A stretch of 63,963 nucleotides of DNA, counting the filler, from an uncultured Methanosarcinales archaeon (lineage in GTDB: Archaea > Nanobdellota > Nanobdellia > Woesearchaeales > CAYZNE01): assembly GCA_964405295.1 (NCBI GenBank). It is 10 parts of 10 records of this genome, joined end to end, with 100 filler letters (N's around TTAATTAATTAA, not from the genome) between each part and the next. Parts side by side here need not be neighbours in the genome. Positions count along the whole stretch, not along the records: positions 29,211 to 35,969 come from CAYONI010000026.1; 9 more parts are not named here. One strand, 5' to 3'. Shown here piece after piece: positions 20,129 to 42,361 of this stretch (within the stretch, counting starts at the first letter, position 1; each line of letters opens with the position of its first letter). The notes below the pieces were generated by a model that worked only from the letters and a program-made list of their open reading frames with translations, was not told the origin of the DNA and made no database searches. The translations under genes and the position numbers were made by a program.

Positions 20129-20137
20129 GAGGGTATT

Positions 20138-22267: not shown

Positions 22268-22935
22268 TTATCCGGACCATATCTATTAAAAAGATCTTCT
22301 GGAGAAACCATTTTATCTTCTTTGACAAGTTCTGTTTGAATTTTAGTTGGAATAATATCCTTAACATTAGAAATCTTTTTCTTACTAGATAACTTCTTCT
22401 TATTATAAGTAATGGGCTGCCCTATGACTTTATCTATATTATCAATTAATTTTTCTCTAACTGAAACATATGTCTTTTCAATATTAATAGGCTCATCAAT
22501 TTTGATGTTCTTTTTCTTAATAAAAAGACTCTTAACAAAAGATGTTTTTAATGCGTGTTTAAGCCCGTTTTCAAATAATGAAAGCTGTTCTTTCTCTTTA
22601 ATTAAAGCTTCAACTAATTCCTTAAAATTATTAATTACCGAATGAAAATCAGGATGCTCAACTTCTACACCAGAATATACTTCTTTATTTATACCTATTA
22701 AGAACCCTATTGATTTATTTTTTGTTTCTTCAGTAATATTTCCTTTATCTATATGAGAAATTAAATCCGCAAATGATAATTCATAATCAATTTCGAAATA
22801 GCTCTTAAAAAATAGTTTAATTAATGAATAAACCTCCTTCTCAAGAATGATTTTCTTCGATAATAGATAACCACATTTCTTAATAACAACCTTCTTAAGT
22901 TCTCTAATTAATAACTCTCCCTCTTTTTTTTTCAT
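22214..22935 (-). CDS. Hypothetical Lys-rich archaeal protein (3'-partial)
   Basis: Open frame with an AGGT-type SD upstream; truncated in the tandem repeat. Confidence 0.65.
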
Positions 22936-23007
22936 TTTACTAACCTTTTACTTATTAAATTATATTATGACAATTTAAAAAGCTTTCTCACCTAATATAT
23001 AACTATT

Positions 23008-26000
23008 TTATTTACTTTCATCATTTAATGATTTATGCTCATCCTCAATATTTGCAAATTCAGCTGGTTTCTTTTTTAACATCCATTTTCTTAAGAATAC
23101 AAGACCCAAAACTATGACCAAAATAATTATTCCTAATACCAATAGGATCGTTCTATTATTAAATAAATCTTTTAAAAAATCCCTACCAAAAACCAGACTA
23201 ACACTTCCAGGCTCTTCTTTTATTGATTGTTTATTGTACTCTTCAATCATATGTTTACAACCATTTATTGCAATATCTAAAAGTTTTGAAGTTTCATCTT
23301 TATCTCCTTCTGCTAAACTATCTTCTGCCTGTCTTAATAATTCCACTAGCTCTTGGCATTCACCATTATTATCGAGTAGGTCCCTTGCAAAAGAAAGTTT
23401 TGTTTCAAGAGTTTCACCTTCATTTTTCTCCTCTAATGAATTAATTATTATGAGTGCACTATCCATAAATGAAGGGTCAGAAACATTTGCGTGTATTTCT
23501 AATTCATAACTTCCAGGATCCCTATAATTAATCAATGTTAAGTTAACAAATTCACTTTCTCCTACATAAATAAAATCAACAAAAGTGGAGCTTAATGAAT
23601 ACTCAACATCTCCTTCTTCAGTTTTAATACCCAATGAAACCCCATTCAACGGCCCAGTCCAATTATTCTTTAATTCAATTGGAATAATAATTGTTTGATT
23701 CTGATACATAACAACGCTTTTCGCACTAATAATCTCCAGAGGGAAAGGATCATTATCCCCCTCCAAAGGAAGACTAACTGGGTGCCTAGTTGTTCCTCCA
23801 GCAGGCTCGGTAGGACCTTGATATTTAGCAGTAACATTAACGAACACTTCATTACTATTGACGACACCACCGAAAACATCTTCTGCAGTGAAAACCATAG
23901 AACAATAGCCTTCAGTTAAACCTTTTAGATCAAGAGTATCACCTGTAATAGTAATATTTAGATAAGCATTACAACCAGAGGTATACTCATAAGTTAGATT
24001 TGAAGTTTCATCATCACCTAGCAACCAGTCTTCATTAATATCAAAATCAGGATCATAAAATCTTTGTAACCCTGAACTGAAACTTGGAAGTGTAAAATAA
24101 TCAGGTACCATTATTGAACCATCAACAGAACGGTTTCCAGTAAAATTTGGAAGTGAATTATTTAAAATAGGAAGACGATTAACATTTGTAATATTTAAGT
24201 CCCAAGTCCAATTAACTTCATTAAAAGTATCATCTACTACTTGCAATAATACTTCGTAAGAATCACTACTAAAAAAGTTAAAAGTATAATTAAGAGTATG
24301 ATTACCATCAATTAAACTGGAATCATTTATTAGCTCTCCATTAACAGTCCAATTATAATTTAGTGTTGAATCACTATCTACAGTTGTATGATTAAATATT
24401 ATCGATACATTTTCGTTTTCTACCATCATTGTTGTTCCGCCTGAAGACTGATTTGTGTTATTCCAAGCATAAATGATTTGATAATTATCACTCTCATTAC
24501 CATAAGGGTATATGCTCTCTATTTCTGGAGAACTACTTCTCAGATATATTGTAAAATTAGTATCATAGGTATCATTAACACCTAAAGAATCTGTAAGAGT
24601 GATTGTTATATTATAAGTTTTATTTGCACAATCTGCAACAAAAGTATCAATAGTTACTTCTCCTGTTAACGAATTTATTGAGAATATATCGGGGATTGTA
24701 GGAGTTATGTTAAAACTATAGGTTAAAACTTCTGTTGAACCAATTACATAAAGGTCGTCGTCATCACCAGTTACAACAACACTTGACGAATATGGTATTT
24801 GATAAAATATTCCTTCACTAGAAGCATTAGGGAAAACTATTGGCTTAGTCAATTCAGGATTGTTGTTAGTATTATTTATTGAAAAAATAAATGAATCATA
24901 AATAACAGCCCCTCTTTGGTCTTGAAGGCTTAAGTTTATTGAATAATTACCAACATCTAATTGATTGGGTATAAAATTAATTATTCCGGTTGCTTGAGTT
25001 ATATCAAAAGTAAAAGAAGAGTTTCCAAAACCATTAATTAAACTGACTGATTCTATTGAATAATTAACAAAGTCACCTCCGTCATCATCAGTTCCAGTAA
25101 CATTAAAAGAACAAGCAACATCCTCAGAACAATTAATATTGTCTAAACCATAAACAAAATATGGCACAGTATTATTAAGAACAGTTAATTCTAATACTTT
25201 AAATGCTGATAAAGGTGTTCCTGCTTGGAAATTACTGGTCCCATCATCAGTTAGGGTAATATTAAATAAATAAGTATTATCAACTAACGTATCATTAGTA
25301 CTATGAAAACCAAAGATTCCATCAGTTGAAAGATTAAAATAATCTCCAGAATAATTCATTGTATAGGTTATGTTCTCACCCTCATAAGTAAAATTGTCAA
25401 CATCACTACCGTTAATTACATACACAAAATTTGTATAAAGATAAGCATTAAGATTTGAAATGTTTTGAGAAGTACTAAAGGTATTATTTTGATGGCTACT
25501 ATTATCACTAATTACAGGATAATCATTAGTATTATTAAAAACTGCATTTATAGTTGTGGAATCAGTTGAACCAAACTGATCTTCTACATAAACAATAAAA
25601 TCTCTTTGAACAATATGTGTATTATTGAGTGCAATTATATTAATAGTTGCATTATAATGGCCAACATCATTAATAGTATAATTAATAAAATTTGAAAAGT
25701 TATCTGTAAAAACAGATTGATTTGAAGAAAAGCTCAGATTCTCTCCAACACCAACATCAATATCTGTCGCATGAAATTCTAAAATAAAAGGCTGACCTTG
25801 CACACCATTTATTTGCTGTGTTATTTGAGTTATATTCGGAGCGTGATTTGTGCTATTAATTGTTAAATTATAAACAAAAGTAGTATTAACAGTATTATTG
25901 GTTGAATCTACTGCAGTAATATTTATTGAATAATTACCAAAATCTGCAGGTGCAGCACTACCATCTGATGTATTAAAATATATTTCTTTTGTAGTTTCAT

Positions 26001-26934
26001 TAATTTCAATATAACTTAAACTTCCAGGGCTATCACGATTATTATTAACAACTGAAAGAGTATATGCATCTTCTTCTTCATCAGTAACTGTAAACGCTTC
26101 TGTATAATTTGTATCTGTATTTATATCTACAACAGATTCATTAAGCGTAATAATCGGTGCGTCATTTACAGGTATTAAAGTGAAATCTATAAGTTTATTA
26201 GGAAGCCCCCCCTCATCATTATCAGTTGCTTGAAACTGTGTATCATTTTGGTATTTTGTTGTTTCACTTCCATCAACTTCAGGATCTAAAATAGCATGAT
26301 CAACAAGACAAGTTATTGCCCCTGTATAAGATGCAACAGAACAAATATTTAATAGATTAGTTTCATCTTCAAGTGAATAAATAAGTGTATCATTATCTGC
26401 ATCTGTTGCATTAATTATTAAATCATATTGTATATCTTCATACATAGTAAACGATGAACCAACTTCTCCAACACCATAGTAAATTTTAAGATTAATAGGT
26501 GGAGAATTTTGAACTTCTACACTTACTTCATCAGTAACATTATCTGTTGTATTAAATAAAGTAACATTGCAAGTCCAAGTTTCACCCTTTCTAGTAACAG
26601 AAGAAGATATGGTTTGAGGGCTAGGAAATTCTCCTACAGTTCCTTCAAGTGTTATGTAAAGAACACTGCCATTCAACCATACAATGGTTACATTTATTGC
26701 ATCATCATAATCCCAACTACAATTTAAATCATCGTCAGTATAAACAGAACCCATTGCAGGGTCACCACCATTAAAAGATACTAATCCAGTTAATCTTGAT
26801 AAAGAAAATTCTTCAGGGCCATAACTCACTATTAGGAATGCAAATAATATAAAAAGAGCTACAAAAGATCCTTGTCTTAATAACTCTTCGAGCTTTTTCT
26901 TTTTCTCTTTTTTACTCTTTGGGTCTTTATTCAT
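23008..26934 (-). CDS. Large cell-surface protein with cadherin/Ig-like repeats and C-terminal TM anchor (DPANN-type)
   Basis: N-terminal TM plus LTGLV motif; repeated V/T-N-x-x-P...A-x-D-x-D units; many N-x-T/S sequons; C-terminal TM helix. Confidence 0.8.
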   Translation of the reverse strand: MNKDPKSKKEKKKKLEELLRQGSFVALFILFAFLIVSYGPEEFSLSRLTGLVSFNGGDPAMGSVYTDDDLNCSWDYDDAINVTIVWLNGSVLYITLEGTVGEFPSPQTISSSVTRKGETWTCNVTLFNTTDNVTDEVSVEVQNSPPINLKIYYGVGEVGSSFTMYEDIQYDLIINATDADNDTLIYSLEDETNLLNICSVASYTGAITCLVDHAILDPEVDGSETTKYQNDTQFQATDNDEGGLPNKLIDFTLIPVNDAPIITLNESVVDINTDTNYTEAFTVTDEEEDAYTLSVVNNNRDSPGSLSYIEINETTKEIYFNTSDGSAAPADFGNYSINITAVDSTNNTVNTTFVYNLTINSTNHAPNITQITQQINGVQGQPFILEFHATDIDVGVGENLSFSSNQSVFTDNFSNFINYTINDVGHYNATINIIALNNTHIVQRDFIVYVEDQFGSTDSTTINAVFNNTNDYPVISDNSSHQNNTFSTSQNISNLNAYLYTNFVYVINGSDVDNFTYEGENITYTMNYSGDYFNLSTDGIFGFHSTNDTLVDNTYLFNITLTDDGTSNFQAGTPLSAFKVLELTVLNNTVPYFVYGLDNINCSEDVACSFNVTGTDDDGGDFVNYSIESVSLINGFGNSSFTFDITQATGIINFIPNQLDVGNYSINLSLQDQRGAVIYDSFIFSINNTNNNPELTKPIVFPNASSEGIFYQIPYSSSVVVTGDDDDLYVIGSTEVLTYSFNITPTIPDIFSINSLTGEVTIDTFVADCANKTYNITITLTDSLGVNDTYDTNFTIYLRSSSPEIESIYPYGNESDNYQIIYAWNNTNQSSGGTTMMVENENVSIIFNHTTVDSDSTLNYNWTVNGELINDSSLIDGNHTLNYTFNFFSSDSYEVLLQVVDDTFNEVNWTWDLNITNVNRLPILNNSLPNFTGNRSVDGSIMVPDYFTLPSFSSGLQRFYDPDFDINEDWLLGDDETSNLTYEYTSGCNAYLNITITGDTLDLKGLTEGYCSMVFTAEDVFGGVVNSNEVFVNVTAKYQGPTEPAGGTTRHPVSLPLEGDNDPFPLEIISAKSVVMYQNQTIIIPIELKNNWTGPLNGVSLGIKTEEGDVEYSLSSTFVDFIYVGESEFVNLTLINYRDPGSYELEIHANVSDPSFMDSALIIINSLEEKNEGETLETKLSFARDLLDNNGECQELVELLRQAEDSLAEGDKDETSKLLDIAINGCKHMIEEYNKQSIKEEPGSVSLVFGRDFLKDLFNNRTILLVLGIIILVIVLGLVFLRKWMLKKKPAEFANIEDEHKSLNDESK

Positions 26935-27092
26935 TACTTTCTACTCCGAGATTTATGTCCTTTACTATCTGATTTAAGATTCTTAGTTAATGAAGAAATA
27001 ACAAAGTCTTTTATGGTAATATTATTCATTGCACAATAAACTTTTATTTTTTTATGCAATTCATCAGGAATTTCTATATTTATATTGACCAT
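26934..27092 (-). CDS. Ribbon-helix-helix DNA-binding protein (52 aa; not in ORF track)
   Basis: MVNINIEIPDELHKKIKVYCAMNNITIKDFVISSL...; its TAA overlaps the ATG of the surface-protein gene. Confidence 0.8.
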   Translation of the reverse strand: MVNINIEIPDELHKKIKVYCAMNNITIKDFVISSLTKNLKSDSKGHKSRSRK

Positions 27093-27125
27093 GTTTGTTT
27101 TATCTCATATATTAATATCTGGTTA

Positions 27126-27248
27126 TTATTTGATTTCCTTGGATAGAACTTTAGTAATATATTCTTTAATTGTAAAATTATCTATTGCACACTTAACTTT
27201 CATTTGTTTATGCAATTCATTTGAAATAGCAATATTTACATTTACCAT
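27126..27248 (-). CDS. Ribbon-helix-helix DNA-binding protein (40 aa; not in ORF track)
   Basis: MVNVNIAISNELHKQMKVKCAIDNFTIKEYITKVLSKEIK; AGGTG SD; clear paralogue of the neighbouring gene. Confidence 0.8.
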   Translation of the reverse strand: MVNVNIAISNELHKQMKVKCAIDNFTIKEYITKVLSKEIK

Positions 27249-27539
27249 TTTACACCTACTCCCCTTATAACAAATTATTACACTTACCATTTAATAAGTT
27301 AACTATGTGGAGCTTTAATCTACTAACTTATCTTACTTAACTTACTTTACTAAGTTAGTTAAATTGATTTATTTAGTTTATTTATATTACTTAGATAACT
27401 TATTTATAAAGATTGTGGTAAAAAAGAATATAGCAAAAGCTAGTTTTAGAAAAATACATAGAAAAAATGCTCAATAACAAAAGCTATTGAGATAAAATAA
27501 AAAAAAATGAATCATGCATAAAAAAATTAGACTAAAAAA

Positions 27540-29110
27540 AGATTAAAGCGAACTTATTAGTAACTGCACGCTGAATACCTCGCCGAAGCTTGGTACTTAC
27601 ACGCCAGTCCTATCAAACCCATCTTCTATAGGCGTTCTCATGTCTCTTTTCTAGGTGGGTTTCGTGCTTAGATGCTTTCAGCACTTATCCCTTAAAGCGT
27701 AGCTGCTCAGCTTACCTTATCAGATAACTGATACACCAGAGGCTTCGAACCATCGTTCCTCTCGTACTAAATGGTCCTTCCCATCAGACACTGAACATTC
27801 CCAGTAGATATTAAACAAACTGCCTCACAGCGTTCTGAACCCAGCTCACGATCCCTTTTAATGGGTGAACACCCCCACCCTTGGATGCTTCTGCACATCC
27901 AGGATAGGAAGAGCCGACAGCGATGTAGCAAGCCGCGCCGTCGATATGAGCTCTCGGGCGCGACAACTCTGTTATCCCCGGAGTAACTTTTCGGTCAATG
28001 CTAGCCCCCATCAAGGAGAACTAACAGATCGCTAGACCAGTATTTCTACTTTGGATTTCCACTTATTAGAAACCCAATCAGGCCGACTTTTGCTCTTGCA
28101 CTCTACGGTGGATTTCTGACCCACCTGAGCAGACCTTTGGGCCCCACTGATATCATTTCAGTGGGGTGCCACCCCAGCCAAACTGTCCACCAATTGATGT
28201 CTTTGCATTGCAAATAAGTATCACAGAATTTGAAGAGTGGTGTTACATTGGCGTCTATATTCAAGCTGGCGCCTAAATCATAACAACTCCCACTTACACT
28301 ATACAACAAATCCCGTAACACAACAACAGGCTACAGTAAAGTTTCACGGGGTCTTCACTTCCCACTGGGAATCTCTGGCCTTTGCACCAGAATAGAAAGT
28401 TCGGAGGGTTCTAGTTAGGGACAGCGATGATCTCGTTACGCCATTCATGCAGGCCGTCATTCAAACGGCAAGGCATTTCGCTACCTTAAGAGAGTTATAG
28501 TTACCCCCGCCGTTTATCAGCCCTTCACCCCCTTGAAAGAAGGCTTAAGGTACTGACACTGGGCAGACGTCACCAACTATACACAGCTTTACAGCCTAGC
28601 AGTTGGTTATGTTTTTGTTAAACAGTCGGACCATCCTTGTAATTTCACCCTACAATCGCACCCATGCGGATACAAAAGTAGGGACCCCTTATACCGAAGG
28701 TACGGGGCCAATTTGCCGAATTCCCTTGACTAGATTATCCCTACACACCTTAGGCTTCTCACCTAGGGGCACCTGTGCCGGTTCTGGGTATGAACATTCA
28801 GAATCTATATCAATTCCTTTTTCACGGACTCAAGGCATTAGCAGAATGTACAAATGCACACTGTTCTAAGGTTTAAACAAATTCTCATCATAACAATACT
28901 CCTTTGTTTTATCCTTATTAGCATATTCGATAGAATATGTCTGCCTAGCCCAAAGTGTCAGAAATTGATCTTGCGTTGCCGCACATATCTAAATGGTACA
29001 GGAATATTAACCTGTTTCCCTTTCCCCTCACTCCAATTAGGAGCTGGGTTAGGATCAACTAACCCTCAACTGATTTGCATTGTTGAGGAACCCTTGCCCT
29101 TACGGTGATA
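27540..29110 (-). rRNA. rrl: Archaeal 23S rRNA, 3' part (5'-truncated; 3' end approximate)
   Basis: Minus strand has GGTAACTATAACTCTCTTAAGGTAGCGAAAT, GAAGACCCCGTG, GGGGATAACAGAG, sarcin-ricin loop AGTACGAGAGGAAC; archaeal-type GCTTGCTAC and G2058. Confidence 0.97.
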
Positions 29111-29210: not shown

Positions 29211-29250
29211 CCCTGTCGACCATCACCTCCGTTTAAAAAAGTGATTGGTT

Positions 29251-29314
29251 GATTAGCTGTCTCATCGGCACCGGGAGCTAATCCCCGAATGGACACCCGA
29301 AAGGGCGTTTCGAC
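29251..29314 (-). ncRNA. Type II hammerhead ribozyme with pseudoknot (core variant CCGAUGA)
   Basis: Minus strand: GUC-GAAA-CGCCC-UUUC-GGGUG-UC|-CAUUCGGGGAUUAGCUCCCGGUG-CCGAUGA-GAC-AGCUAAUC. Stems I, II and III form, and the 3' tail AGCUAAUC is complementary to GAUUAGCU at loop I. Confidence 0.8.
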
Positions 29315-29513
29315 TGTGTCCGGTGTATGTGGCGGATCTTGGCCCCCGGTCGGGCTCCCCTCTCACATTCGATTCTGTTCTCACGGCTGTCAGAGTTTCC
29401 CTTAATTGTGCGGTCCCCCCTGCTCGGATCGAATCCCCTGCTATTTGCTGAGGCTGAAATTGTTGGTCTGTCGCATCCACCATCCCCTTGACTCGTCCCT
29501 CAATTTCAACTCC

Positions 29514-29542
29514 ATTATATCATACCAATGGGGGTCTGTCAA
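29514..29542 (-). promoter_or_regulatory. Consensus sigma70 promoter driving the ribozyme-containing leader
   Basis: TTGACA-17 nt-TATAAT with extended -10 TG. Confidence 0.88.
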
Positions 29543-29661
29543 GTATTTTGTTTATAGTACACCAATTGGTACTATGTTTTGTAGTACAATACTATGCTTG
29601 CAAAATACCGTTGGTTAAACACTAATAATTTGTTCTACAATTCTACGGGTTGAACACTGGA

Positions 29662-29731
29662 AATGGCCTTGAGATATCTCAAGGCCATTCAGATATATTT
29701 GACGTACGGTCGGATATATTTGACGTACGGT
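29662..29731. repeat. 28-bp perfect palindrome plus two 19-bp direct repeats
   Basis: AATGGCCTTGAGATATCTCAAGGCCATT (29662-29689); GATATATTTGACGTACGGT at 29692-29710 and 29713-29731. Confidence 0.92.
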
Positions 29732-29853
29732 TGACATACAGTCGGCCCGAGTGGGTTAACCTGCCACTGAGTGGTATTTCACCAGTTCATTTGGTTACTC
29801 CAACACATCCTGTCGGGAACTGATCATCTGTCACTAAGTGGTATTTTGTGGTT

Positions 29854-30222
29854 TTACTTGGGGGTCGGTTCCGGTCTACTGGAAATATCCCGGTTGACAA
29901 TCCGGTCGTCTAAATCCGGCCTGACATCCAATGTGTTGAGAGCTGACAACATGCAAAACATGGCAGCTGCAAGGTGGTGTTTTTCTACCCCGTGCTTCGA
30001 TGCTGCCGGGTCCATATTTTCACCCTTCCAGTAAAATTCCTCGATGTGCCGAAGGGCTGCATCCATCAAAACACTTATTTTGAAGCCCAGTCTCCAACTC
30101 TCCTCCCAATATTTCTTGTTTCCTTCTTCGTATGCTGGTATAAGATATTTTCGCAGCAGGTCCATTGGGAGAAGTGTCATTCGGTCTTTCTTGTCTATCT
30201 CGTTGTTCTTTGGTGCTTCCAT
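29854..30222 (-). CDS. DUF5664 / dATP-dGTP diphosphohydrolase N-terminal-domain-like protein
   Basis: K.RM.LLP...G..KY...SW..G......DAALRH....W.GE..D......HHLAAA pattern. Confidence 0.75.
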   Translation of the reverse strand: MEAPKNNEIDKKDRMTLLPMDLLRKYLIPAYEEGNKKYWEESWRLGFKISVLMDAALRHIEEFYWKGENMDPAASKHGVEKHHLAAAMFCMLSALNTLDVRPDLDDRIVNRDISSRPEPTPK

Positions 30223-30662
30223 TCTTTGTTTGTCTCCTCTTGAATCTTTTCAATCCAGTATGCTTTGTTGTTTGCCTTCTCGCTTCCTATCACGAGACGA
30301 TATTTGGCAAAGTATCTCACTTTATCATCTTTCTCTTCTTCCCATAGAGCAGTATGGTCGAAGAAATACATCCAGTCGAACTCTTTATCCCATACGAGCA
30401 CCCACACTCGGCCAGCCTTTTTCCCCCTGTTGTGTATCCAGTTATATTGTTGTGGTGTCATACTTGGAAGCATTATAGTTTGAAGCTTCATTGGCCCAGT
30501 GACCTTCAGCTCAATCCAACCATGGCCAGCTGGTGTGGTGATGGTGATGTCTGGTATTCCGAGAGCAAGACCCCGTGGTTCTACTCTATCATAAGAGAGA
30601 GTTTGGATCGCCTTTAAAACAGTTTTTACCCGGTTTTTCCACATCCATGCCTCGGGTTTCAT
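30195..30662 (-). CDS. VRR-NUC-like PD-(D/E)xK nuclease / junction resolvase
   Basis: RVE...GIPD...WIELKV...PQQYNW...G.VWVLV. Confidence 0.82.
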   Translation of the reverse strand: MKPEAWMWKNRVKTVLKAIQTLSYDRVEPRGLALGIPDITITTPAGHGWIELKVTGPMKLQTIMLPSMTPQQYNWIHNRGKKAGRVWVLVWDKEFDWMYFFDHTALWEEEKDDKVRYFAKYRLVIGSEKANNKAYWIEKIQEETNKEWKHQRTTR

Positions 30663-31228
30663 ATGATGTCGTCTATATAGGTTTCAGGATCTTCTATCAG
30701 TCGGACCAGTACACCATACACAGCGTCCCAGGCACAACCTGACCAAATCCCCTTTACGGTTTCGATATATTGCTTCATATCTTTATATAGCCTATTATAG
30801 ATCGATACAGCTTGACCGTTCAGCCCTTCCTTTTTCAGATACTTCAAGGCGTCGATATAATCGGCTATTTTTACTACAGCTTTTATGTCACCAGAGATAC
30901 TAATTTCATACTTTTTCAACTTTGGGTCAACCTGTTTTTCGAGTTCATCGAACTTTTCTTTTGCCATCCGTTTTACGGGTGATACGGCGTCACCGATGAT
31001 GACCTCGGGCAGGTCGTGGATCAGAGACCACTGCAGGATATCCAGCTTGTCTTTATCGTCAAAATGTTCTTCACCAATGGCCGCTACGATGTGCAAAGAA
31101 ATCATCGCCACCATGTGGCTGTGCTCGGCCACGGTCTGTTGCCTTGAGGTATGGATGATATGCCACCGCTTCACATGTTGTGCCCGGTAAATGTCGGGCA
31201 AAGAAAGGCTTGTAATGTTAGTCAACAT
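30659..31228 (-). CDS. datZ: HD-domain dATP triphosphohydrolase
   Basis: RAQHVKRWHII, QTVAEHS, HDLPE...GDAVSP, KIAD; AAGGAG RBS before ATG 31228; next to mazZ/purZ. Confidence 0.85.
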   Translation of the reverse strand: MLTNITSLSLPDIYRAQHVKRWHIIHTSRQQTVAEHSHMVAMISLHIVAAIGEEHFDDKDKLDILQWSLIHDLPEVIIGDAVSPVKRMAKEKFDELEKQVDPKLKKYEISISGDIKAVVKIADYIDALKYLKKEGLNGQAVSIYNRLYKDMKQYIETVKGIWSGCAWDAVYGVLVRLIEDPETYIDDII

Positions 31229-31253
31229 ATATTGTTTGCTCCTTATACATATG

Positions 31254-31607
31254 TTAGTCGGCATATCCGTCGTCCTCCTGATCTTCTGGCTTGTAACCAG
31301 ATTCTACGTGGCTCATGATGCCGGTTTTAGAGTTCATGACCCACTTTCGGGCTCTGTTGATCTTCATCTTCTCACGAACAGCAGAAGCAGCGTCGATTCC
31401 CTTCAAATAAGCCAGATCCAGCACCAGAATCAAAATGTCCGCATATTCCATCGGGTCGTTTAGTTCGCTCTTTACGAGCTCCGGAATCTCTTCAAACACC
31501 AGCTTGTTGAATGTGTGTTGTGGTTCCCTGTCGGGCATCACTTTATTGGCCCAGGTAGCAATTTCTTCTTGAAGCTTTTTGATACTCGACAATTTATGTT
31601 TCTGCAT
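31254..31607 (-). CDS. mazZ: MazG-like (d)GTP diphosphohydrolase
   Basis: LQEEIATW..PDR..KL.EEI.EL...DPMEYADILIL.LDLA...KM.INRARKW, closely resembling my recollection of cyanophage S-2L MazZ. Confidence 0.87.
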   Translation of the reverse strand: MQKHKLSSIKKLQEEIATWANKVMPDREPQHTFNKLVFEEIPELVKSELNDPMEYADILILVLDLAYLKGIDAASAVREKMKINRARKWVMNSKTGIMSHVESGYKPEDQEDDGYAD

Positions 31608-31779
31608 CGGTATCCTCCTTTTGTCTCTTTTTCGCTTTATTTCTGTAATACTCCCGATTAGTACTCTTGCTGCACGATTTGCAGATCCAGTCGTACTTCT
31701 TCACTCTGCTTGGGAATATGTTGTCTTCGTCCTTTAACTTCTTTTTGCACAATCTGCAGATCTTCTCTTTGATATCCAT
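31594..31779 (-). CDS. Small basic zinc-finger protein
   Basis: CRLC...CKSC with a basic tail; G-rich RBS. Confidence 0.65.
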   Translation of the reverse strand: MDIKEKICRLCKKKLKDEDNIFPSRVKKYDWICKSCSKSTNREYYRNKAKKRQKEDTDAET

Positions 31780-31788
31780 TTTCCCCCC

Positions 31789-32859
31789 CTACGATTGTTT
31801 TACGACATCCGCACAACTCGGACCGAAGCTCATATATTTGACCGGGTTGATCTTGTCACCGTGAACTGTTCTATACATGTGGTTTATTTTCTCTTTTAGC
31901 TTTTGGGCTTCGTCGTCGTCCAGATAATCACAAAAAGAGAGCCAGATCTCGTCTGGGGCGCAAATTTCGAGAGCTTGCAACGTCTGAACATCAGAGAACG
32001 AAAAAATCCTGCGCTCCAGTTTGGTGACGGTCGTCTTCTCCGGTTTGAACCCTAAGTCCCCCCAATTAAGTTCTGTTTGATCCACATAACCCGGTCCACT
32101 GTAACCAATCATATTTCCTTCTTCGTCATATCGGTTTGCTACCCGAATCGGAAAGGTTCGCATTACACCAATAACCCTATCCACTTTTCGTGCGTTTATC
32201 AGAGTGTCAGACATAATTTGTGCGGGGGAACATTCCCGGCTAGTGCAGTACGGATAAAAACCACTATTTATTCCTAAGCTGAACCCCTGCGCCCCTTCCA
32301 CCACAATTTTATCAGAACAGTCTAAATAAGCCAGCCATTTTCGTGTATCCACTACGTCCACTTTCCTGACGTACCCTTTCAAAATTTGTTCGAGAAATTC
32401 CCTAAATTGCCCTGTTGTGATGTCAACATCCACCTGTCGGCTGAGCTTCCCTATGAGAGCAGCACCGGAACCCTTTTTTGTGCTGCCGATGCCGGTCATG
32501 GTCTTTTCTTCAGTCCTGACGTGATCCTCCTTCAAGAGAGCCGCATTCTCGTGGATAACCAGTACAGCATCTTTTACATATTCATGGCACTCCGTCAACT
32601 CTATGATCAGCCGGTCTACGTCAAGGACCGTACCGGGAGCGACCATGATGGTTTTTAGCTTTGGTGACACAATGCCATTAGCCAGAGCCCGATGTACAAA
32701 CTTTCTTCCTTCGTAATCTACAAAGGTATGTCCAGCATTCGGGCTCCATGCCGTAACCACTGTATCGGGCTCTTCCATCAAAGCCGTATACCCTGCTGCA
32801 GCACCTTTGCCAGTTGATCCGAATTGTAAATCGCAAATAATCGTTACGTTCTTTTTCAT
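31789..32859 (-). CDS. purZ: N6-succino-2-amino-2'-deoxyadenylate synthase
   Basis: Short PurA fold with DLQFGSTGKG (Ser instead of the Asp of PurA GDEGKG), PNAGHT, GSTKKG, EGAQG, YPYCTSR, RTFPIRV, TTVTKLERR; Z-pathway neighbours. Confidence 0.93.
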   Translation of the reverse strand: MKKNVTIICDLQFGSTGKGAAAGYTALMEEPDTVVTAWSPNAGHTFVDYEGRKFVHRALANGIVSPKLKTIMVAPGTVLDVDRLIIELTECHEYVKDAVLVIHENAALLKEDHVRTEEKTMTGIGSTKKGSGAALIGKLSRQVDVDITTGQFREFLEQILKGYVRKVDVVDTRKWLAYLDCSDKIVVEGAQGFSLGINSGFYPYCTSRECSPAQIMSDTLINARKVDRVIGVMRTFPIRVANRYDEEGNMIGYSGPGYVDQTELNWGDLGFKPEKTTVTKLERRIFSFSDVQTLQALEICAPDEIWLSFCDYLDDDEAQKLKEKINHMYRTVHGDKINPVKYMSFGPSCADVVKQS

Positions 32860-32860
32860 C

Positions 32861-33004
32861 CTATACCTCTCCTTTTGTGTAAAATTGTTGTGGATATTTG
32901 TTGCCTTTTAAATCGTTTTCTGCTTGTGGTATTATTCTTAGATTTGTTTCAACATTAAGCCCTGAAACTGTGTCATTCTGTAAAAGGTGATAATGGTCTA
33001 ATAA
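32861..33004 (-). pseudogene. HNH endonuclease C-terminal remnant
   Basis: LLDHYHLLQNDTVSGLNVETNLRIIPQAENDLKGNK...stop; in-frame TGA just upstream and no start codon. Confidence 0.72.
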
Positions 33005-33255
33005 GATATATCATCGTCAAATTTATTTGGGGACAGGGCATCCGCAGGACTCTGCGTCCGCTGGCCTTCTTCAATCGGCGTGACCGACAAAGAAAGGTAT
33101 TTCTCCCCGTCACCTCTCTTGTAATTGGTCCATCCGGACAGGTAGTATTCGGTCCCTTCGATGTCGATCTTTCCCATCACAGTCGGACTCTTGTCGGACT
33201 TCTTGTTGTTGTTGATGAAAAGGACTCCCCGGTTTGTGTTGTCATACTGCGGCAT
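32998..33255 (-). CDS. Conserved small phage protein (DUF736-like, possible SSB)
   Basis: YDNTNRGVLF...GKIDIEG.EY.LSGW...YLSLS, acidic tail FDDDISY. Confidence 0.7.
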   Translation of the reverse strand: MPQYDNTNRGVLFINNNKKSDKSPTVMGKIDIEGTEYYLSGWTNYKRGDGEKYLSLSVTPIEEGQRTQSPADALSPNKFDDDISY

Positions 33256-33311
33256 TCTGTTCTCCTTTCTTTTTCAGTTTATGTTTAATCTTTTCTCCAT
33301 CATCCAGAACC

Positions 33312-33340
33312 ATCCTACCACACCAGACAGCTCTTGTCAA
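33312..33340 (-). promoter_or_regulatory. Sigma70-type promoter upstream of the purZ-mazZ-datZ operon
   Basis: TTGACA-AGAGCTGTCTGGTGTGG-TAGGAT (17 nt, extended -10). Confidence 0.75.
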
Positions 33341-33351
33341 TGGGCGTTTGC

Positions 33352-35220
33352 TTAGTCATGAATCTTCTTTGTGTTTGTGGCTTCCCACCAATTTTTCCCA
33401 GGTTTGCAAAAGTCTATCCTGATTGGTATCCGGAGTTTGGGTGCCCCTGGTCTGGTTTGTACCAATTCTTGTATTTTGTTTAAGGGTGTCTTGGCTCCCT
33501 GTTTTAGCATGGATATGTTTAGTTCGTCATGGATCGATAAGAGAACGTGTGCATCAGGGCATTCAGCCTCTAAATATTCGCAGGTGTTGCAGATGTCCAA
33601 CTTTACAAGGTCGGCAGATGTTCCTTGAAAGATCAGACCGGAAGCTTTGTATGTGAACTCTCCACCGGGAAAGCGAAGATGTCTTCCCATCAAGGTCCTG
33701 ACGTAGCCTCTTGTCTTTGCAACTGATGCGGCATTTCGTGCTAACCCCCTCACGCCCGGAACTGCTTCAAAGTATCGGTCTATCACGTCCTGTGCTTCGG
33801 GTCCCGGCTTTTTAAACTCCCGTATGACACCTTTAAATTCTTTCTCTTCGACGGTGAAAGGAAGGTTCATCTTCTCGGCCAGAGCACCACCGCCCATGTT
33901 GAAGACCATGGCCAAGTTGATTTGTTTAGCATTCGCACCACCGGAGACCTTCGGGTTTCTCGGAAGACCAGTGAGAGCCGCTATCTTCCCGTGAATGTCT
34001 AAATCAGGATCTTCCCGGTAAGCTTGGGTAAGGTCGGGAGCGTTCACATAATGAGCGAAGACCCGAAATTCGTGCTGATCCAGATCGCCGTAGAACCATC
34101 TTTGTCCTTCATCAGGGAGAAATATTGGCCGAACGATGGCAGCAATGTCTTTGTCTCTGCTCGGAATTTGTTGTAAAGCTGGTCTTGTGTAGGACAATCT
34201 GCCTGTGCCGGTCCCTTCATCATTCCCACCGTGACTCGACTTTGTCTGGTTGATGGTCGGGTGCACCCGGTCGCCATGTGCATGTCCCAATATGTGGTTG
34301 TGGATAAATGTGTCACGAGTCTTCATGAGTTTCCTGCAGCGAAGAATCATGGCAGCAGCCGGATGCTGCATCTTTCGGAGTTGGTCGGCTCCAATACTCG
34401 CTTTCCCGGCCTCTGTTTCCGGAAGAAGTGTGCCATCTACAGCTTGCCATTTTCCATCCTTTCCCTTCTTCGGTTCAAAAAGTTTATGGATCGACCCTGA
34501 AGGGTTCGGATTGACCGGAAAGCCAGCCATGTCGTTGATTCCCTTTTGTGTGGACTTGATCTCTTTGGTCAGTCGGTCCGTAGTCCGTGCTGCTTCGTCC
34601 AGATCAACACGAATACCATGTCTCTCCATCCTCAGTCGGTGAGGGAAGAGTCGCATTTCGAGATCCAACACCTGTTGAAGGCCCTGTTTTGCGATCTCTT
34701 CTTCCTGCCACAAATAAAGTTCCAAAGCCACTCGGGTATCCTGCTTGGCGTACGGAGCCACCATAGACTCTGGAGCTCGGTGTAGGTTTTTCATTTGTGC
34801 CGCACGGTTCGCCTTGCCACCAAACATATCGGCTAACTTCTGGTAAATGTCCGTTAGTTTACCTTTATTTTTTCCAAGATATTTCTTTGCGAGAGCGTCC
34901 AGATTGTATTGTAACAAATGTTCATTTATTAAAGCAGCTCGGATCATGGTGCACTGCACTCTTGCTGGGTCGATGTTGATGCTTTTGTTCCAGAGCATGT
35001 GGATATCAAAGCCGATATTCTGGTTGACGATAAGAGGACATTTCGGAACTTCTTCTCTTAACCACGAGAGAACTCTATCATCTGTCCTGATATCAAAATA
35101 ATAGTCATCCGTCATTGTTGAAACGGAGATACCAAAGAGATCTTCGGTTAGCCAGTTGATGCCAGTAGTTTCGGTATCCAGAGCTATGAATGGATGTTCG
35201 CTTATTTTTGGGTAGATCAT
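33352..35220 (-). CDS. dpoZ: Family A DNA polymerase, DpoZ type
   Basis: Exo DTETTG/NIGFD/YAKQD; TGRLS; motif A DLDQHEFR, B KQINLAMVF, C IHDE; ASGLIFQGTSAD; upstream of purZ. Confidence 0.88.
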   Translation of the reverse strand: MIYPKISEHPFIALDTETTGINWLTEDLFGISVSTMTDDYYFDIRTDDRVLSWLREEVPKCPLIVNQNIGFDIHMLWNKSINIDPARVQCTMIRAALINEHLLQYNLDALAKKYLGKNKGKLTDIYQKLADMFGGKANRAAQMKNLHRAPESMVAPYAKQDTRVALELYLWQEEEIAKQGLQQVLDLEMRLFPHRLRMERHGIRVDLDEAARTTDRLTKEIKSTQKGINDMAGFPVNPNPSGSIHKLFEPKKGKDGKWQAVDGTLLPETEAGKASIGADQLRKMQHPAAAMILRCRKLMKTRDTFIHNHILGHAHGDRVHPTINQTKSSHGGNDEGTGTGRLSYTRPALQQIPSRDKDIAAIVRPIFLPDEGQRWFYGDLDQHEFRVFAHYVNAPDLTQAYREDPDLDIHGKIAALTGLPRNPKVSGGANAKQINLAMVFNMGGGALAEKMNLPFTVEEKEFKGVIREFKKPGPEAQDVIDRYFEAVPGVRGLARNAASVAKTRGYVRTLMGRHLRFPGGEFTYKASGLIFQGTSADLVKLDICNTCEYLEAECPDAHVLLSIHDELNISMLKQGAKTPLNKIQELVQTRPGAPKLRIPIRIDFCKPGKNWWEATNTKKIHD

Positions 35221-35243
35221 GGTACTCCTTTGTTATTATAATG

Positions 35244-35513
35244 TTAACACCCATCTATTATTGCAAGATTTCTTCTGTAACCACAAGATGAGCAGGTAAA
35301 CATATAGCACCCAGCTCCGTATGCTGACCCCATACTACATTCGCCTTCGTCCTGTACCTGTGTCCGTTCTAGTGAGTTTTTGAATATGATTTTTTCGTCT
35401 GTAATATATTTCTGTCCATCCAGATTATCCCATGCCCCGTTCTCTCTGCAGTCATCACAGCACGGAATAATATCAATTTTGAATAATGGACAATTACATT
35501 TCTTGCATTTCAT
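35244..35513 (-). CDS. Cys-rich small phage protein
   Basis: CKKC, CCDDC, CSSC; AGGAG RBS. Confidence 0.6.
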   Translation of the reverse strand: MKCKKCNCPLFKIDIIPCCDDCRENGAWDNLDGQKYITDEKIIFKNSLERTQVQDEGECSMGSAYGAGCYMFTCSSCGYRRNLAIIDGC

Positions 35514-35877
35514 TCCAGTTCTCCTTTCGCAGTTTCTGAACCATAAACTCTGCCAATTTTTTATCGCTTTTGACTACGAATTTCCCCTCCCAGAAGAAGT
35601 CTCGAATGTATTGTTTATTTCTTAAGTCATATTTTGGATAAAATACCCGTTTAATGTGTGGACCTATTAATTTTTCAGGTGGTTCAATTTCAATGTTATT
35701 CAGGATAAAAAATTCAGGATTTTCTATTACGTTGGAATCGGTAATCATTACTTCAAAGTAACTTGCTCCCCTTTCCATCTTTTCGATAAAGGTAAATTCA
35801 TCTTGGATAATTTTTTCCGCTTGCCTTTTTGTCAGGTGTTTTTTTATTACTACATTCACAATTGGTTTCCAGTTCAT
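35494..35877 (-). CDS. Hypothetical phage protein
   Basis: AAGGAG RBS; co-oriented and overlapping the next gene. Confidence 0.6.
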   Translation of the reverse strand: MNWKPIVNVVIKKHLTKRQAEKIIQDEFTFIEKMERGASYFEVMITDSNVIENPEFFILNNIEIEPPEKLIGPHIKRVFYPKYDLRNKQYIRDFFWEGKFVVKSDKKLAEFMVQKLRKENWNEMQEM

Positions 35878-35969
35878 TTAAGTTCTCCTTTTCTTATTTT
35901 AATAATGATTTCTACTACCAAAGGCGCCATAAACAACAGCCCAACCAGTTTTGAAAAGATGAATAACGA

Positions 35970-36069: not shown

Positions 36070-36127
36070 CTCCACAGCCAAGCAAGAAGATAAGCAGGAA
36101 GAGCGTGGCAGCTGCCAAACATTAGGC
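36070..36127 (+). mobile_element. attC-like site (left end truncated by the contig edge)
   Basis: CTCCAC...GTGG-C-AGCTG-CCAAAC-ATTAGGC; same layout as the site at 42258-42314. Confidence 0.6.
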
Positions 36128-36215
36128 ACTTTCGTAGTGTTTAATGTTAAATAACTATACAAATAAAAGATGAATAAATAGAAAAGATACAAAAATATTT
36201 TTTAGGGAAGTAACT

Positions 36216-38018
36216 ATGAAATTTAAAGAAAAAGCAAATCTAATTTGGAACGTTGCAGATTTACTGCGCGGTGATTATAAACAATCTGATTATGGAAAAG
36301 TGATTTTACCTCTAACTGTTTTAAGAAGACTTGATTGTGTTCTAACACCAACAAAACAAACGGTTTTAGACTATCTGACAAAAATAAAATCTTCAGCAAC
36401 AGACAGCACAATTGATTTAATCCTAAATAACAAAGCAAAACAAAACTTTCATAACCGCAGTAAATATGATTTTGAAAAGCTTAAAGATGACCCAGATAAT
36501 ATTGCTGCAAATCTAAGAAATTATATTGCAGGTTTTTCTAGCAGTGCCAGAGAAATAATTGAATACTTTAATTTTGACGACCAAATTACACGAATGGATA
36601 ATCCACAAGCTGACATTCTTTTTCAAGTTGTAACAAAATTTGCAGAAATTGATCTATCCGATATGCAAAGTATGGAGATGGGTTATGTTTTCGAGGAATT
36701 GATTCGTCGTTTTTCTGAGCAATCTAATGAAACCGCCGGAGAGCATTTTACTCCAAGAGAAGTTATAAAGCTAATGGTTAATCTTCTTTTTATTGCTGAT
36801 AATGAAATACTAACAAAAGAGGGAATTGTAAAAACACTTTATGATCCAGCTTGCGGAACTGGCGGTATGCTTTCTGTTGCCGAAAAGCATCTAAATGAAT
36901 TTAACCACAAAGCAAAACTTGAAGTTTTTGGGCAGGAAATAAATCCTGAATCTTATGCAATTTGTAAATCTGATATGCTGATAAAATCTCAAAATCCATC
37001 TAATATAAAATATGGAAACACATTTACTATTGATGGTCTGGAAGATGAACAATTTGATTATATGCTTTCCAATCCACCCTTTGGTGTAGATTGGAAAAAA
37101 GCTAGAACTATAATTAAAAGTGAACACGATAATCGTGGATTTTCTGGTCGCTTTGGTGCTGGTTTACCAAGAATTAATGATGGTGCGCTACTTTTCTTAC
37201 AACATATGCTTTCTAAAATGAAACCAACTGGAACTAGAATTGGTATTGTGTTTAATGGTTCTCCACTTTTTACAGGTCAAGCTGGAAGCGGTGAAAGTGA
37301 TATTAGAAAATGGGTAATTGAAAATGATTGGCTGGAAGCAATTATTGCTCTTCCTGATCAACTTTTCTATAATACTGGAATTTCCACTTACATCTGGATT
37401 GTGAATAACCACAAAGTTGATGAGCGAAAAGGAAAAATCCAATTAATAAATGCAACAGGCGCAAAAGATGATGAACTGCTTGCAGAAGGTAAAATTGATT
37501 TTAATAGATTCTACGAAAAAATGACTCGAAGCCTTGGTAATAAAAGAAAGAAAATACCAGAAAATGGCACAGATAAAGGCATTGGCTTGATTACTAAGCT
37601 TTACGGTGATTTTGAAGATAATGAATTTGTGAAAATCTTCCCGAATGAATATTTCGGTTACCAAAGAATAACAGTTGAACAACCACAAAAAAATGAGAAC
37701 AGTGAAATTATAACTGATAAAAAAGGAAAAACAAAAGCTGATACCTCATTGCGAGATTACGAAAATATTCCGTTCTTACGAAAGCAGAAAGATGGTAAAT
37801 TAGCAGAACAAACCATTGCAGAATATTTCCAAAGAGAGGTTACACCACATTTGCCTGAAGCCTGGATTGATGAAAGTAAAACCAAAATTGGTTATGAAAT
37901 AAATTTCACCAAATATTTCTATGAATTCAAAATACTTCGCTCTCTTGATGAAATAAAAGCTGATATTTTGTCTCTTGAAAAAGAAACTTCCGAACTTGAA
38001 AAAGGGATTTTGCTGTAA
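36216..38018 (+). CDS. hsdM: Type I R-M methyltransferase subunit
   Basis: GEHFTPREVI, YDPACGTGGM, SNPPFG. Confidence 0.96.
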   Translation: MKFKEKANLIWNVADLLRGDYKQSDYGKVILPLTVLRRLDCVLTPTKQTVLDYLTKIKSSATDSTIDLILNNKAKQNFHNRSKYDFEKLKDDPDNIAANLRNYIAGFSSSAREIIEYFNFDDQITRMDNPQADILFQVVTKFAEIDLSDMQSMEMGYVFEELIRRFSEQSNETAGEHFTPREVIKLMVNLLFIADNEILTKEGIVKTLYDPACGTGGMLSVAEKHLNEFNHKAKLEVFGQEINPESYAICKSDMLIKSQNPSNIKYGNTFTIDGLEDEQFDYMLSNPPFGVDWKKARTIIKSEHDNRGFSGRFGAGLPRINDGALLFLQHMLSKMKPTGTRIGIVFNGSPLFTGQAGSGESDIRKWVIENDWLEAIIALPDQLFYNTGISTYIWIVNNHKVDERKGKIQLINATGAKDDELLAEGKIDFNRFYEKMTRSLGNKRKKIPENGTDKGIGLITKLYGDFEDNEFVKIFPNEYFGYQRITVEQPQKNENSEIITDKKGKTKADTSLRDYENIPFLRKQKDGKLAEQTIAEYFQREVTPHLPEAWIDESKTKIGYEINFTKYFYEFKILRSLDEIKADILSLEKETSELEKGILL

Positions 38019-39268
38019 TGAGGTACGATAAATATAGAGATAGCGGAATTGAATGGATTGGTGAAATTCCTCAGCAGTGGGATTGTTATAAAATTAAATT
38101 TCTCTATAATTTTTCTATGGGAGCTACTATCTTAAAATCCGATCTGAAAAAAGATGGAAAAATACCTGTTTATAGTGCAACTGAAAGTGATACTATTTTT
38201 GGATATGTTAATGAAACAAATGTAATTCTTGCAGAGAATGATTTTGTTATACCAGCTCGTGGAAATTCAATAGGGCATATTTATCTTGTTAAACATAAAT
38301 CTACTTGTACACAAACTACGATTTATGCTAAAGATAAGAAATCAGATATTGGTGTACCTAAATTTGTTTTTTATTTTCAAAAAGGGTTAAGAAAACATCT
38401 ATTTCAATTTGATAGAACTGCAATTCCTCAAATTACGGTAGAACAAGTTAAAAATAATTTGTTAGTAATCCCACCCAAAACTGAACAAACCGCAATTGCA
38501 AGTTTCCTCGATCAGAAAACATCAGAAATTGATGATTTAATTTCCAACAAAAAAAAACTTCTCAAGCTCTATGAAGAAGAAAAAACTGCAATTATCAATC
38601 AAGCTGTAACAAAAGGGATAAACCCAAATGTAAATATGAAAGATAGTGGTGTGGAGTGGCTTGGTGAAATTCCTGAGCATTGGGAATTAAAAAAGTTAAA
38701 AAGATTTTCAGTAATCAAGCGTGGTGCTTCCCCAAGACCAATTGCTGATCCAAAATATTTTGATGAAAACGGTGAATGGTCTTGGGTTAGAATTGCAGAT
38801 GTGTCTGCTAGTGAAAGATATTTAAAAAGCACGACTCAAACATTATCGGATCTAGGAGCTTCTTTAAGTGTTAAAATGCTTCCCAATGATTTTTTTCTTT
38901 CAATAGCAGGTTCTGTTGGTAAACCAATAATAACTAAGATAAAATGTTGTATTCACGATGGTTTTGTTTATTTCCCAAATCTTAAATTAAATTCTGAATT
39001 TCTTTTTTATATTTTTTCAACAAGTCAACCTTATCAAGGCCTCGGAAAGTGGGGAACTCAGTTAAATCTAAATACAGATACAGTTGGAGGAATATCAATT
39101 CCCAAACCAGATAAAAAAGAAATAACTTCAATTGTAAATTTCCTCGACCAGAAAACAGCAGAAATCGACAAAAAAATATCAAAAACCAAGAAATTAATTG
39201 AATTATTGCAGGAATACAAAACAACCTTAATCAGCGAGGTTGTAACAGGAAAAATAAAGGTGATTTAA
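38018..39268 (+). CDS. hsdS: Type I R-M specificity subunit
   Basis: Duplicated DSG(I/V)EW(I/L)GEIP, two TRDs, EQTAIASFLD, LISEVVTGK; TAATG coupling. Confidence 0.96.
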   Translation: MRYDKYRDSGIEWIGEIPQQWDCYKIKFLYNFSMGATILKSDLKKDGKIPVYSATESDTIFGYVNETNVILAENDFVIPARGNSIGHIYLVKHKSTCTQTTIYAKDKKSDIGVPKFVFYFQKGLRKHLFQFDRTAIPQITVEQVKNNLLVIPPKTEQTAIASFLDQKTSEIDDLISNKKKLLKLYEEEKTAIINQAVTKGINPNVNMKDSGVEWLGEIPEHWELKKLKRFSVIKRGASPRPIADPKYFDENGEWSWVRIADVSASERYLKSTTQTLSDLGASLSVKMLPNDFFLSIAGSVGKPIITKIKCCIHDGFVYFPNLKLNSEFLFYIFSTSQPYQGLGKWGTQLNLNTDTVGGISIPKPDKKEITSIVNFLDQKTAEIDKKISKTKKLIELLQEYKTTLISEVVTGKIKVI

Positions 39269-42249: not shown

Positions 42250-42257
42250 AAAAAAGT

Positions 42258-42314: not shown

Positions 42315-42361
42315 CCATTTGCTGTTTTAGAGAATTGAAGTTGTTGACCAAAAAATTAAAA

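Follow-up and report, generated by a model that had tools for sequence, protein, structure and literature searches.

An Asp-type donor-base pocket in a PurZ-family synthetase, and coupled, repeated pocket switching across the PurZ family

Described synthetases and the PurZ of this locus

The closest described relatives of the gene considered here, a purZ in a Z-base gene cluster, are the ATP-using PurZ enzymes of Acinetobacter phage SH-Ab 15497, Vibrio phage phiVC8 (structures 6FM1/6FKO) and cyanophage S-2L (7ODX), the PurZ0 enzymes of actinophages (Gordonia phage Archimedes, 7VF6; Ghobes, BigMack, and Htur), and PurA (E. coli; Pyrococcus horikoshii, 5K7X). In PurA, D333 is the guanine determinant. 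PurZ0 reportedly uses GTP, according to the abstract of the 2023 study by Tong et al., and the same abstract is reported to describe a donor progression from PurA through PurZ0 to PurZ. Excerpts of a separate account of Z-genome biosynthesis place archaeal PurA (GTP) before PurZ0 (GTP) and PurZ (ATP), and explain the ATP step as an adaptation that also drains dATP (10.1101/2025.10.22.683976). GTP use by PurZ0 is likewise stated in part of another source (PMC12884076). The window analyzed here is the whole stretch of 63,963 nucleotides from assembly GCA_964405295.1. Its purZ encodes a protein, P0001, in which the donor-base motif reads S-F-C-D, whereas all characterized PurZ have the ATP-type pocket motif N-F-x-N/Q. 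The gene and the residues of its pocket are located as follows.

31789..32859, minus strand: purZ, 356 amino acids (aa; protein P0001), PurZ-family dGMP:aspartate ligase (PF00709, 3e-29; PHROG 1211; 6FM1; 7ODX)
32803..32820, minus strand: P-loop G14-S15-T16-G17-K18-G19 (Q-F-G-S-T-G-K-G), with Ser15 in place of the PurA catalytic Asp13, a PurZ hallmark
32800..32802, minus strand: A20, directly after the P-loop
31942..31944, minus strand: W306, an aromatic position kept in the S-F-C-D clade (W/Y/F)
31927..31938, minus strand: S308-F309-C310-D311, donor-base motif, at the end of strand 304-308 (DSSP on the AlphaFold 2 model)
31819..31830, minus strand: S344-F-G346-P347, with S-2L G335 and P336 as the counterparts of G346 and P347 (backbone hydrogen bond and base stacking, respectively, according to excerpts of PMC8342488)

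The gene encodes a synthetase of the PurZ family and belongs to a Z-base cluster with DpoZ, MazZ, and DatZ. P0001 matches PHROG 1211 ('2-aminooxy adenylosuccinate synthetase') at 2e-81. Among solved structures, it matches phiVC8 PurZ (6FM1, 2e-77) and S-2L PurZ (7ODX, 1e-65), with weaker matches to PurZ0 (7VF6, 6e-22) and PurA. The AlphaFold 2 model of P0001, built with 120 homologues, has a mean predicted local distance difference test (pLDDT) score of 92.3. In Foldseek comparisons, the template modeling (TM) score of this model is 0.91–0.94 to phiVC8 PurZ (root-mean-square deviation 1.9 Å), 0.87 to S-2L PurZ, 0.79 to the GTP-bound Pyrococcus PurA (5K7X), and 0.74 to PurZ0. The hallmark Asp13 of PurA, found in G-D-E-G-K-G, is absent; P0001 has Ser15 followed by Thr16, and Ser occupies the Asp13-equivalent column in 300 of the 303 PurZ-family rows aligned, the other three having a gap. 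Amino acid sequence identity of P0001 is 51–55% to PurZ with Asn at the two specificity positions (N-type), at most 46% to any other sequence with Asp at the second of them (D-type), 34–37% to PurZ0, and 25–28% to PurA.

P0001 resembles the three ATP-using enzymes in overall sequence (42–51% identity) and fold (TM 0.87–0.94), in having Ser for Asp13 and the G-S-T-G-K-G loop, and in Phe309, Tyr312, and the G-P stacking loop. In addition, its contig shares the gene order DpoZ-SSB-PurZ-MazZ(DUF550)-DatZ with SH-Ab 15497, where SSB denotes a single-stranded DNA-binding protein whose gene lies at the equivalent place in both. However, P0001 differs from these enzymes in having Ser and Asp in place of the Asn and Asn/Gln that read adenine N6, Ala in place of Leu20, and Ser in place of Gly344. 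At these sites it is more reminiscent of PurZ0, which also has Asp at the D333 equivalent, Ser or Thr three residues before it (the S-F-x-D pattern of Ghobes is identical), and a residue other than Leu after the P-loop; Ser for Asp13 is common to both. Nevertheless, PurZ0 forms a separate clade and has G-S-E-A-K-G and Gly10 rather than G-S-T-G-K-G and Asp10. The genome context also differs: excerpts of PMC12884076 describe PurZ0 phages as carrying DutZ/DmtZ and DpoZ-1, without DatZ or MazZ, whereas both DatZ and MazZ are present here. With PurA, P0001 has in common the PF00709 fold, a T/S-x-x-D guanine motif, and Ser344, which corresponds to S414 of E. coli. Unlike PurA, it has Ser for Asp13, as in a dGMP-type substrate site, and Phe for Lys331.

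The pocket has two states that switch together

The reverse complement of 31921-31947 (ATC TGG CTC TCT TTT TGT GAT TAT CTG) encodes I-W-L-S-F-C-D-Y-L. Translation therefore confirmed exactly the S-F-C-D that a first-pass annotation, made from the sequence alone, had placed at 31927-31938 within IWL-SFCD-YL. HMMER sets L-S-F-C-D-Y-L of P0001 over L-N-F-C-N-Y-L of phiVC8 and L-N-F-A-Q-Y of S-2L, with Ser308 and Asp311 aligned to N294 and N297 of phiVC8 PurZ and to N305 and Q308 of S-2L PurZ. In S-2L PurZ, according to excerpts of the structural description (Czernecki 2021, PMC8342488), N305 and Q308 bind adenine N6 through their side-chain oxygens and G335 binds it through its backbone, F306 and P336 provide stacking on the donor base, and the amide of Q308 (N297 in phiVC8) clashes with the amino group at position 2 in G and Z and so excludes 2-amino purines. 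The two positions named in the first-pass annotation, with Ser and Asp flanking a PurZ-type Phe, are thus aligned to the published adenine-N6-binding residues.

Three MAFFT alignments (308 rows; 95 rows, L-INS-i; and 18 rows) agree in placing D311 under E. coli PurA D333 and under the Asp of PurZ0. In these alignments, E-I-W-L-S-F-C-D-Y-L of the window stands against E-V-F-L-N-F-C-N-Y-L of phiVC8, G-F-C-L-T-K-L-D-V-L of E. coli PurA (with D333), V-L-H-L-S-F-A-D-Q-L of Ghobes, and V-V-A-L-T-M-L-D-Q-V of BigMack. Htur follows the BigMack pattern (L/I-T-M-L-D-Q), and the solved PurZ0 structure 7VF6 reads L-S-M-A-D-Q. Position 344 aligns with S414 in I-S-T-G-P of E. coli PurA. The correspondence of this Asp to D333, on which the first-pass annotation had made its reading depend, therefore holds in all three. 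A smaller MAFFT alignment of nine sequences put D303 of P0001 under D333 instead, but its C-terminal region was misaligned, and it was overruled by the larger and L-INS-i alignments that agree on D311.

Among the 308 aligned rows, the motif is N-F-x-N in 234, T-F-x-D in 25, S-F-x-D in 18, N-F-x-Q in 10, G-F-x-N in six, and something else in 15. The 303 PurZ-family sequences fall into two pocket states. The N-type state is L20, F306, N308, N311, and G344; the D-type state has A/S/N/Q at 20, mostly a residue other than Phe at 306, S/T at 308, D at 311, and S/T/A at 344. The exact signature D10 T16 G17 L20 with F306 N308 F309 N311 G344 is found in 188 of the 254 N-type rows. Residue use at the co-changing positions, which were identified by sister-clade comparisons together with column frequencies, is as follows.

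Position 20: Leu in 231 of 254 N-type rows; A/S in the S-F-C-D clade; A/N/Q/S/K in other D-type rows; R/H in PurZ0; K in PurA
Position 306: Phe in 236 of 254 N-type rows; W/Y/F in the S-F-C-D clade; A/Y/I/V/H in most D-type rows
Position 344: Gly in 242 of 254 N-type rows; S/A in the S-F-C-D clade; S/T/A in D-type rows

Positions 20, 306, 308, 311, and 344 change together in the D-type rows, and they do so toward the residues of PurZ0 and PurA. When the states at 308 and 311 are compared over the 303 rows, 252 have N...N, 45 have S/T...D, and only six are mixed (two-by-two table 252/45/4/2). Moreover, in 14 independent pairs on the tree that differ at 311, position 308 followed suit in 11, moved the other way in none, and stayed unchanged in three (p ~0.001). 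These results show that the PurZ pocket exists in two discrete states with coupled, repeated switching. The pocket of P0001 had been called a hybrid in the first-pass annotation, which is a fair description: A20, S308, D311, and S344 are D-like, but the aromatic residue at 306, Phe309, and the PurZ-type P-loop are kept.

The S-F-C-D motif is stable among the close relatives of P0001. It is present in all of the 10 nearest clusters (59–68% identical), where L-S-F-C-D-Y is invariant against a mean column identity of 55%. Among the 120 best homologues (90%-identity clusters), the remaining 110 all have [N/G/A]-F-x-[N/Q]. Two contigs in IMG/VR, L008 and L009, add further members, giving a clade of 12 in which all 12 carry the motif. 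Related loci were retrieved with the clade alignment as query (47 found) and not with the single protein as query (none found).

More broadly, Asp or Glu occurs at 311 in 33 of 134 (25%) representatives of 50%-identity clusters; these 134 are the best 150 of 392 clusters at E<=1e-30, minus 16 rows dropped for length. Asp at 311 is also found in six of the 46 full-length IMG/VR loci. None of 13 cultured phages checked (10 host genera) has a D-type PurZ, and all read N-F-x-N/Q; they were sampled from 62 PurZ-clade records, of which the other 49 are mostly near-identical Vibrio and Acinetobacter phages. The Asp-type variant is thus visible only in metagenomes. The three PurZ assayed with ATP (phiVC8, S-2L, and SH-Ab 15497) are among these 13. 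The first-pass annotation had asked whether S-F-x-D might be common among ATP-using PurZ. S/T-F-x-D is indeed not rare in the family, at a quarter of the clusters, but it is found in none of the 13 enzymes from cultured phages, the three ATP-assayed ones included.

Phylogenetic position and predicted donor

Both trees were built from alignments stripped of the pocket columns. In the FastTree phylogeny of 308 rows, the S-F-C-D clade is monophyletic (support 97) and lies inside a set of 111 rows (support 98), the rest of which comprises 98 N-type rows, including SH-Ab 15497 PurZ, and one D-type row. In the IQ-TREE phylogeny (LG+C20 PMSF, quick search, 95 rows), the clade groups with two N-type rows (support 97), and this group lies inside a set of 46 rows (support 98) that holds 36 N-type rows. 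In both trees, P0001 is on the PurZ side and outside PurZ0, which is a separate clade with support of 99–100. Changes between the D and N states that are forced by well-supported branches number at least 14 in the FastTree phylogeny and at least nine in the IQ-TREE phylogeny. A single origin of the N-type state from a basal D-type grade was also considered and does not hold, because monophyly of the N-type rows is rejected (log-likelihood difference 512; approximately unbiased test, p-AU 3.7e-73).

The first-pass annotation had offered two evolutionary explanations, an intermediate or a reversion. An intermediate between PurZ0 and PurZ does not fit, as P0001 is much closer in identity to N-type PurZ than to PurZ0 and is inside the PurZ crown in both trees. 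A reversion is favored by the best trees, which nest the clade among N-type PurZ, and the S-F-C-D clade would most likely have regained its pocket from an ATP-type ancestor. Two points weigh against this history: the tree groups were defined by motif after the first tree had been seen, and a topology in which the clade is held outside the other 39 crown rows has a log-likelihood difference of 27.8 and p-AU of 0.16, such that a sister position is not rejected. Rather than having moved one way from GTP (PurA, PurZ0) to ATP (PurZ), PurZ donor specificity may be an evolutionary toggle, in which a five-residue module flipped between adenine and guanine states at least nine times among phages whose DatZ/MazZ/DpoZ machinery is otherwise shared, about a quarter of the clusters are GTP-driven, and the clade of the window is a reversion to GTP inside the ATP-type crown. 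We put this broader picture forward tentatively, with a chance somewhat short of even.

As for the enzyme itself, the prediction is that P0001 favors GTP (or dGTP) over ATP as phosphate donor, because Ser308, Asp311, Ala20, and Ser344 replace the Asn, Asn/Gln, Leu, and Gly of the ATP-using PurZ; we give this prediction about an even chance of being correct. Under it, P0001 would condense dGMP and aspartate into dSMP as before, and MazZ would supply dGMP while DatZ removes dATP, as in the characterized clusters. As in PurA and PurZ0, the Asp311 carboxylate would pair with the N1-H and N2-H2 groups of guanine, and the substitution would also take away the amide that is described as excluding the 2-amino purines G and Z. 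Ser308, Ala20, and Ser344 may reshape the pocket to match. Because the donor 2'-OH is solvent-exposed in the known PurZ structures, according to excerpts of PMC8342488, GTP and dGTP would probably not be discriminated. Cellular GTP would then be the working donor, as MazZ degrades dGTP.

Several observations count against a preference for GTP. The profile alignments stop before the motif (hhalign against E. coli PurA at residue 251; hmmsearch against 5K7X at 241 and against 7VF6 at 306), and the equivalence with D333 consequently rests on MAFFT together with the same placement where a beta-strand ends. The proposed pocket geometry itself derives from sequence alignment combined with published contacts. 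Furthermore, the Ser hydroxyl and the Asp carboxylate oxygens could, like the oxygens of Asn and Gln, accept hydrogen bonds from adenine N6, and ATP could then still be used. Finally, the pocket is only partly PurZ0-like, since the clade retains Phe309, aromatic side chains (W/Y/F) at 306, and the P-loop G-S-T-G-K-G.

These observations bear on two alternatives for the donor. One is relaxed use, in which the S...D pocket takes both adenine and guanine nucleotides, whichever purine nucleoside triphosphate is available, because Asp would drop the G-excluding amide without abolishing recognition of N6. In its favor, both positions still have oxygen acceptors, and F309, G346, and P347, which contact adenine (contacts as described in excerpts of PMC8342488), are unchanged. 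Position 306 is still aromatic in the clade, in contrast to most other D-type lineages, and the pocket is hybrid in character. However, the five positions switch as a block toward PurZ0 and PurA residues in many lineages, a pattern more suggestive of a move from one distinct specificity to another than of a loosening. In addition, a single D333N substitution in E. coli PurA is reported to alter specificity sharply, from GTP to XTP, according to the title of a 1994 report by Kang. We regard relaxed use as a serious but less probable explanation.

The other alternative, that the enzyme is still an ATP/dATP-using PurZ in which Ser and Asp are near-neutral substitutes for accepting the hydrogen bonds of adenine N6, seems to us slightly less probable again. 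It draws on the backbone, the P-loop, and the gene context (DatZ, MazZ, and DpoZ), all of which are those of ATP-type PurZ, as well as on the identity of over half to N-type enzymes. Near-neutral exchange is difficult to reconcile with the tightly bimodal state of the pocket, as N-type rows never have Asp at 311 and mixed rows are few. The co-switching of positions 20, 306, and 344 and the convergence of D-state residues on those of the GTP-using PurZ0 and PurA also speak against it. That the motif is meaningless, because the gene is mis-assembled, decaying, or a non-functional fragment, is very improbable, even though it lies on a fragment of 6.8 kb that was binned together with an archaeal genome unrelated to it. 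The open reading frame (ORF) is intact, an identical P0001 sequence is recorded on three contigs, and the model has high pLDDT (92). Moreover, the motif is invariant in the 11 other members of the clade, which come from other samples, and the genes follow an order that is also seen, in synteny, on IMG/VR contigs 23–34 kb long.

Gene context and implications

The purZ gene lies on contig C26 (CAYONI010000026.1), on which every gene is on the minus strand. The contig and its other genes are listed below.

29211..35969: contig C26, phage fragment carrying purZ, 6759 bp, 44.9% guanine-cytosine (GC) content
33352..35220, minus strand: DpoZ-like family A DNA polymerase with 3'-5' exonuclease domain, 622 aa (PF00476, 8e-50; PF01612)
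32998..33255, minus strand: small single-stranded DNA-binding protein, 85 aa (PHROG 7364, 7e-18)
Between purZ and mazZ, minus strand: 61-aa ORF
31254..31607, minus strand: mazZ, DUF550/MazZ-2 type dATP/dGTP pyrophosphohydrolase, 117 aa (PF04447, 9e-09; PHROG 801)
30659..31264, minus strand: datZ-like HD-domain dATP triphosphohydrolase, 201 aa (PF12917, PF13023; PHROG 7076 'dATP triphosphohydrolase', 5e-31)
Between the datZ-like gene and the DUF5664-type gene, minus strand: 155-aa ORF
29854..30222, minus strand: stand-alone DUF5664-type domain (dGTP_diPhyd_N), 122 aa (PF18909, 7e-15)

The order of the purZ cluster also matches that of the IMG/VR loci L008 and L009. Neither a dUTPase nor an NDT gene was found on C26, the search covering its 6.8 kb and the syntenic contigs. 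At the end of C26, downstream of the DUF5664-type gene, there is a candidate type II hammerhead ribozyme (29251-29315, minus strand; RF02276). Its score of 35.9 bits (E 1e-05) falls short of the gathering score of 37, and it has the GAAAC and GUC elements, with CCGAUGA for the CUGAUGA box.

Six D-type IMG/VR loci (L008, L009, L023, L026, L044, and L051), which represent at least four lineages, all have a UvrD helicase, PolA, PurZ, and an HD-domain DatZ. PF04447 (MazZ/DUF550) is present in four of them and PF18909 in two. No accessory-gene set peculiar to D-type phages was seen in these six loci, and their machinery is that of ATP-type PurZ phages, differing from the DutZ/DmtZ set described for PurZ0 phages (PMC12884076). 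The proximity of MazZ, which the first-pass annotation had singled out, is therefore not special to this locus, as these six D-type loci share the DatZ/DpoZ context and most have PF04447.

Several other arrangements were seen among the relatives. P0004, a 482-aa metagenomic member of the S-F-C-D clade, naturally combines PurZ and MazZ in one fused protein (PF00709, then PF04447). A D12-class (Dam-like) N6-adenine DNA methyltransferase is encoded between mazZ and datZ in L008 (9560-10288) and L009 (9817-10533); this is odd for a genome expected to carry 2-aminoadenine instead of adenine, and no such gene is at that place on C26. A LAGLIDADG intein interrupts the metagenomic PurZ P0121 (733 aa) and P0269 (743 aa), and another metagenomic PurZ, P0124 (551 aa), has an N-terminal HNH homing-endonuclease domain.

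The window consists of 10 contigs from a bin of 98 contigs and 1.27 Mb, joined by spacers of 100 N. As the contigs are merely joined in this way, adjacency across their borders is meaningless. Their positions, and two features outside C26, are as follows.

1-7501, 7602-14973, 15074-22113, 22214-29110, 29211-35969, 36070-42361, 42462-48718, 48819-55056, 55157-61075, 61176-63963: contigs of the window
7602-14973: contig C23, continuous with C26
27550-29107, minus strand: partial archaeal 23S rRNA (1434 bits to Rfam RF02540, model positions 1423-2973), located at the end of contig C25

The 23S rRNA indicates that the bin is archaeal, with a small AT-rich genome. The GC content of C26 differs from that of the bin (31.5%), and its tetranucleotide correlation with the large contigs of the bin is 0.65. 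Given these two properties and the archaeal 23S rRNA on the neighboring contig C25, C26 is most simply a phage fragment co-binned with the archaeal metagenome-assembled genome. About 15 small contigs of the bin have GC contents of 42–47%, distinct from the core at about 30%. By tblastx, C23, C26, C35, and part of C8 line up consecutively with two IMG/VR relatives and, based on this synteny, look like one fragmented phage genome. C23 encodes a UvrD helicase, Pam3 gp32/33/34-like proteins, an SNF2 helicase, and an archaeo-eukaryotic primase (7628-14180; the gp calls are by synteny with L008 and L009). Together these genes make up the replication module located ahead of dpoZ in that phage.

GTP-using PurZ0 is already known. 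What appears to be undescribed is an Asp-type pocket inside the DatZ/MazZ/DpoZ-type PurZ clade, present in a quarter of the clusters and with repeated coupled switching. A full-text literature search found no description of Asp-type pockets within the PurZ clade, although supplements and the study by Tong et al. were outside its reach and the latter may cover such variants.

The recurrence of a guanine-type pocket inside this clade bears on the published account of how Z-base biosynthesis evolved. Should the D-type enzymes use GTP, evolution of the donor need not end in ATP. The purine-balance argument would in that case need revisiting, and donor choice may track host nucleotide pools or the activities of accessory hydrolases. 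In addition, the pocket module offers a compact, testable way to switch the specificity for the donor by changing four or five residues, which may be useful for producing dZTP in vitro or in vivo.

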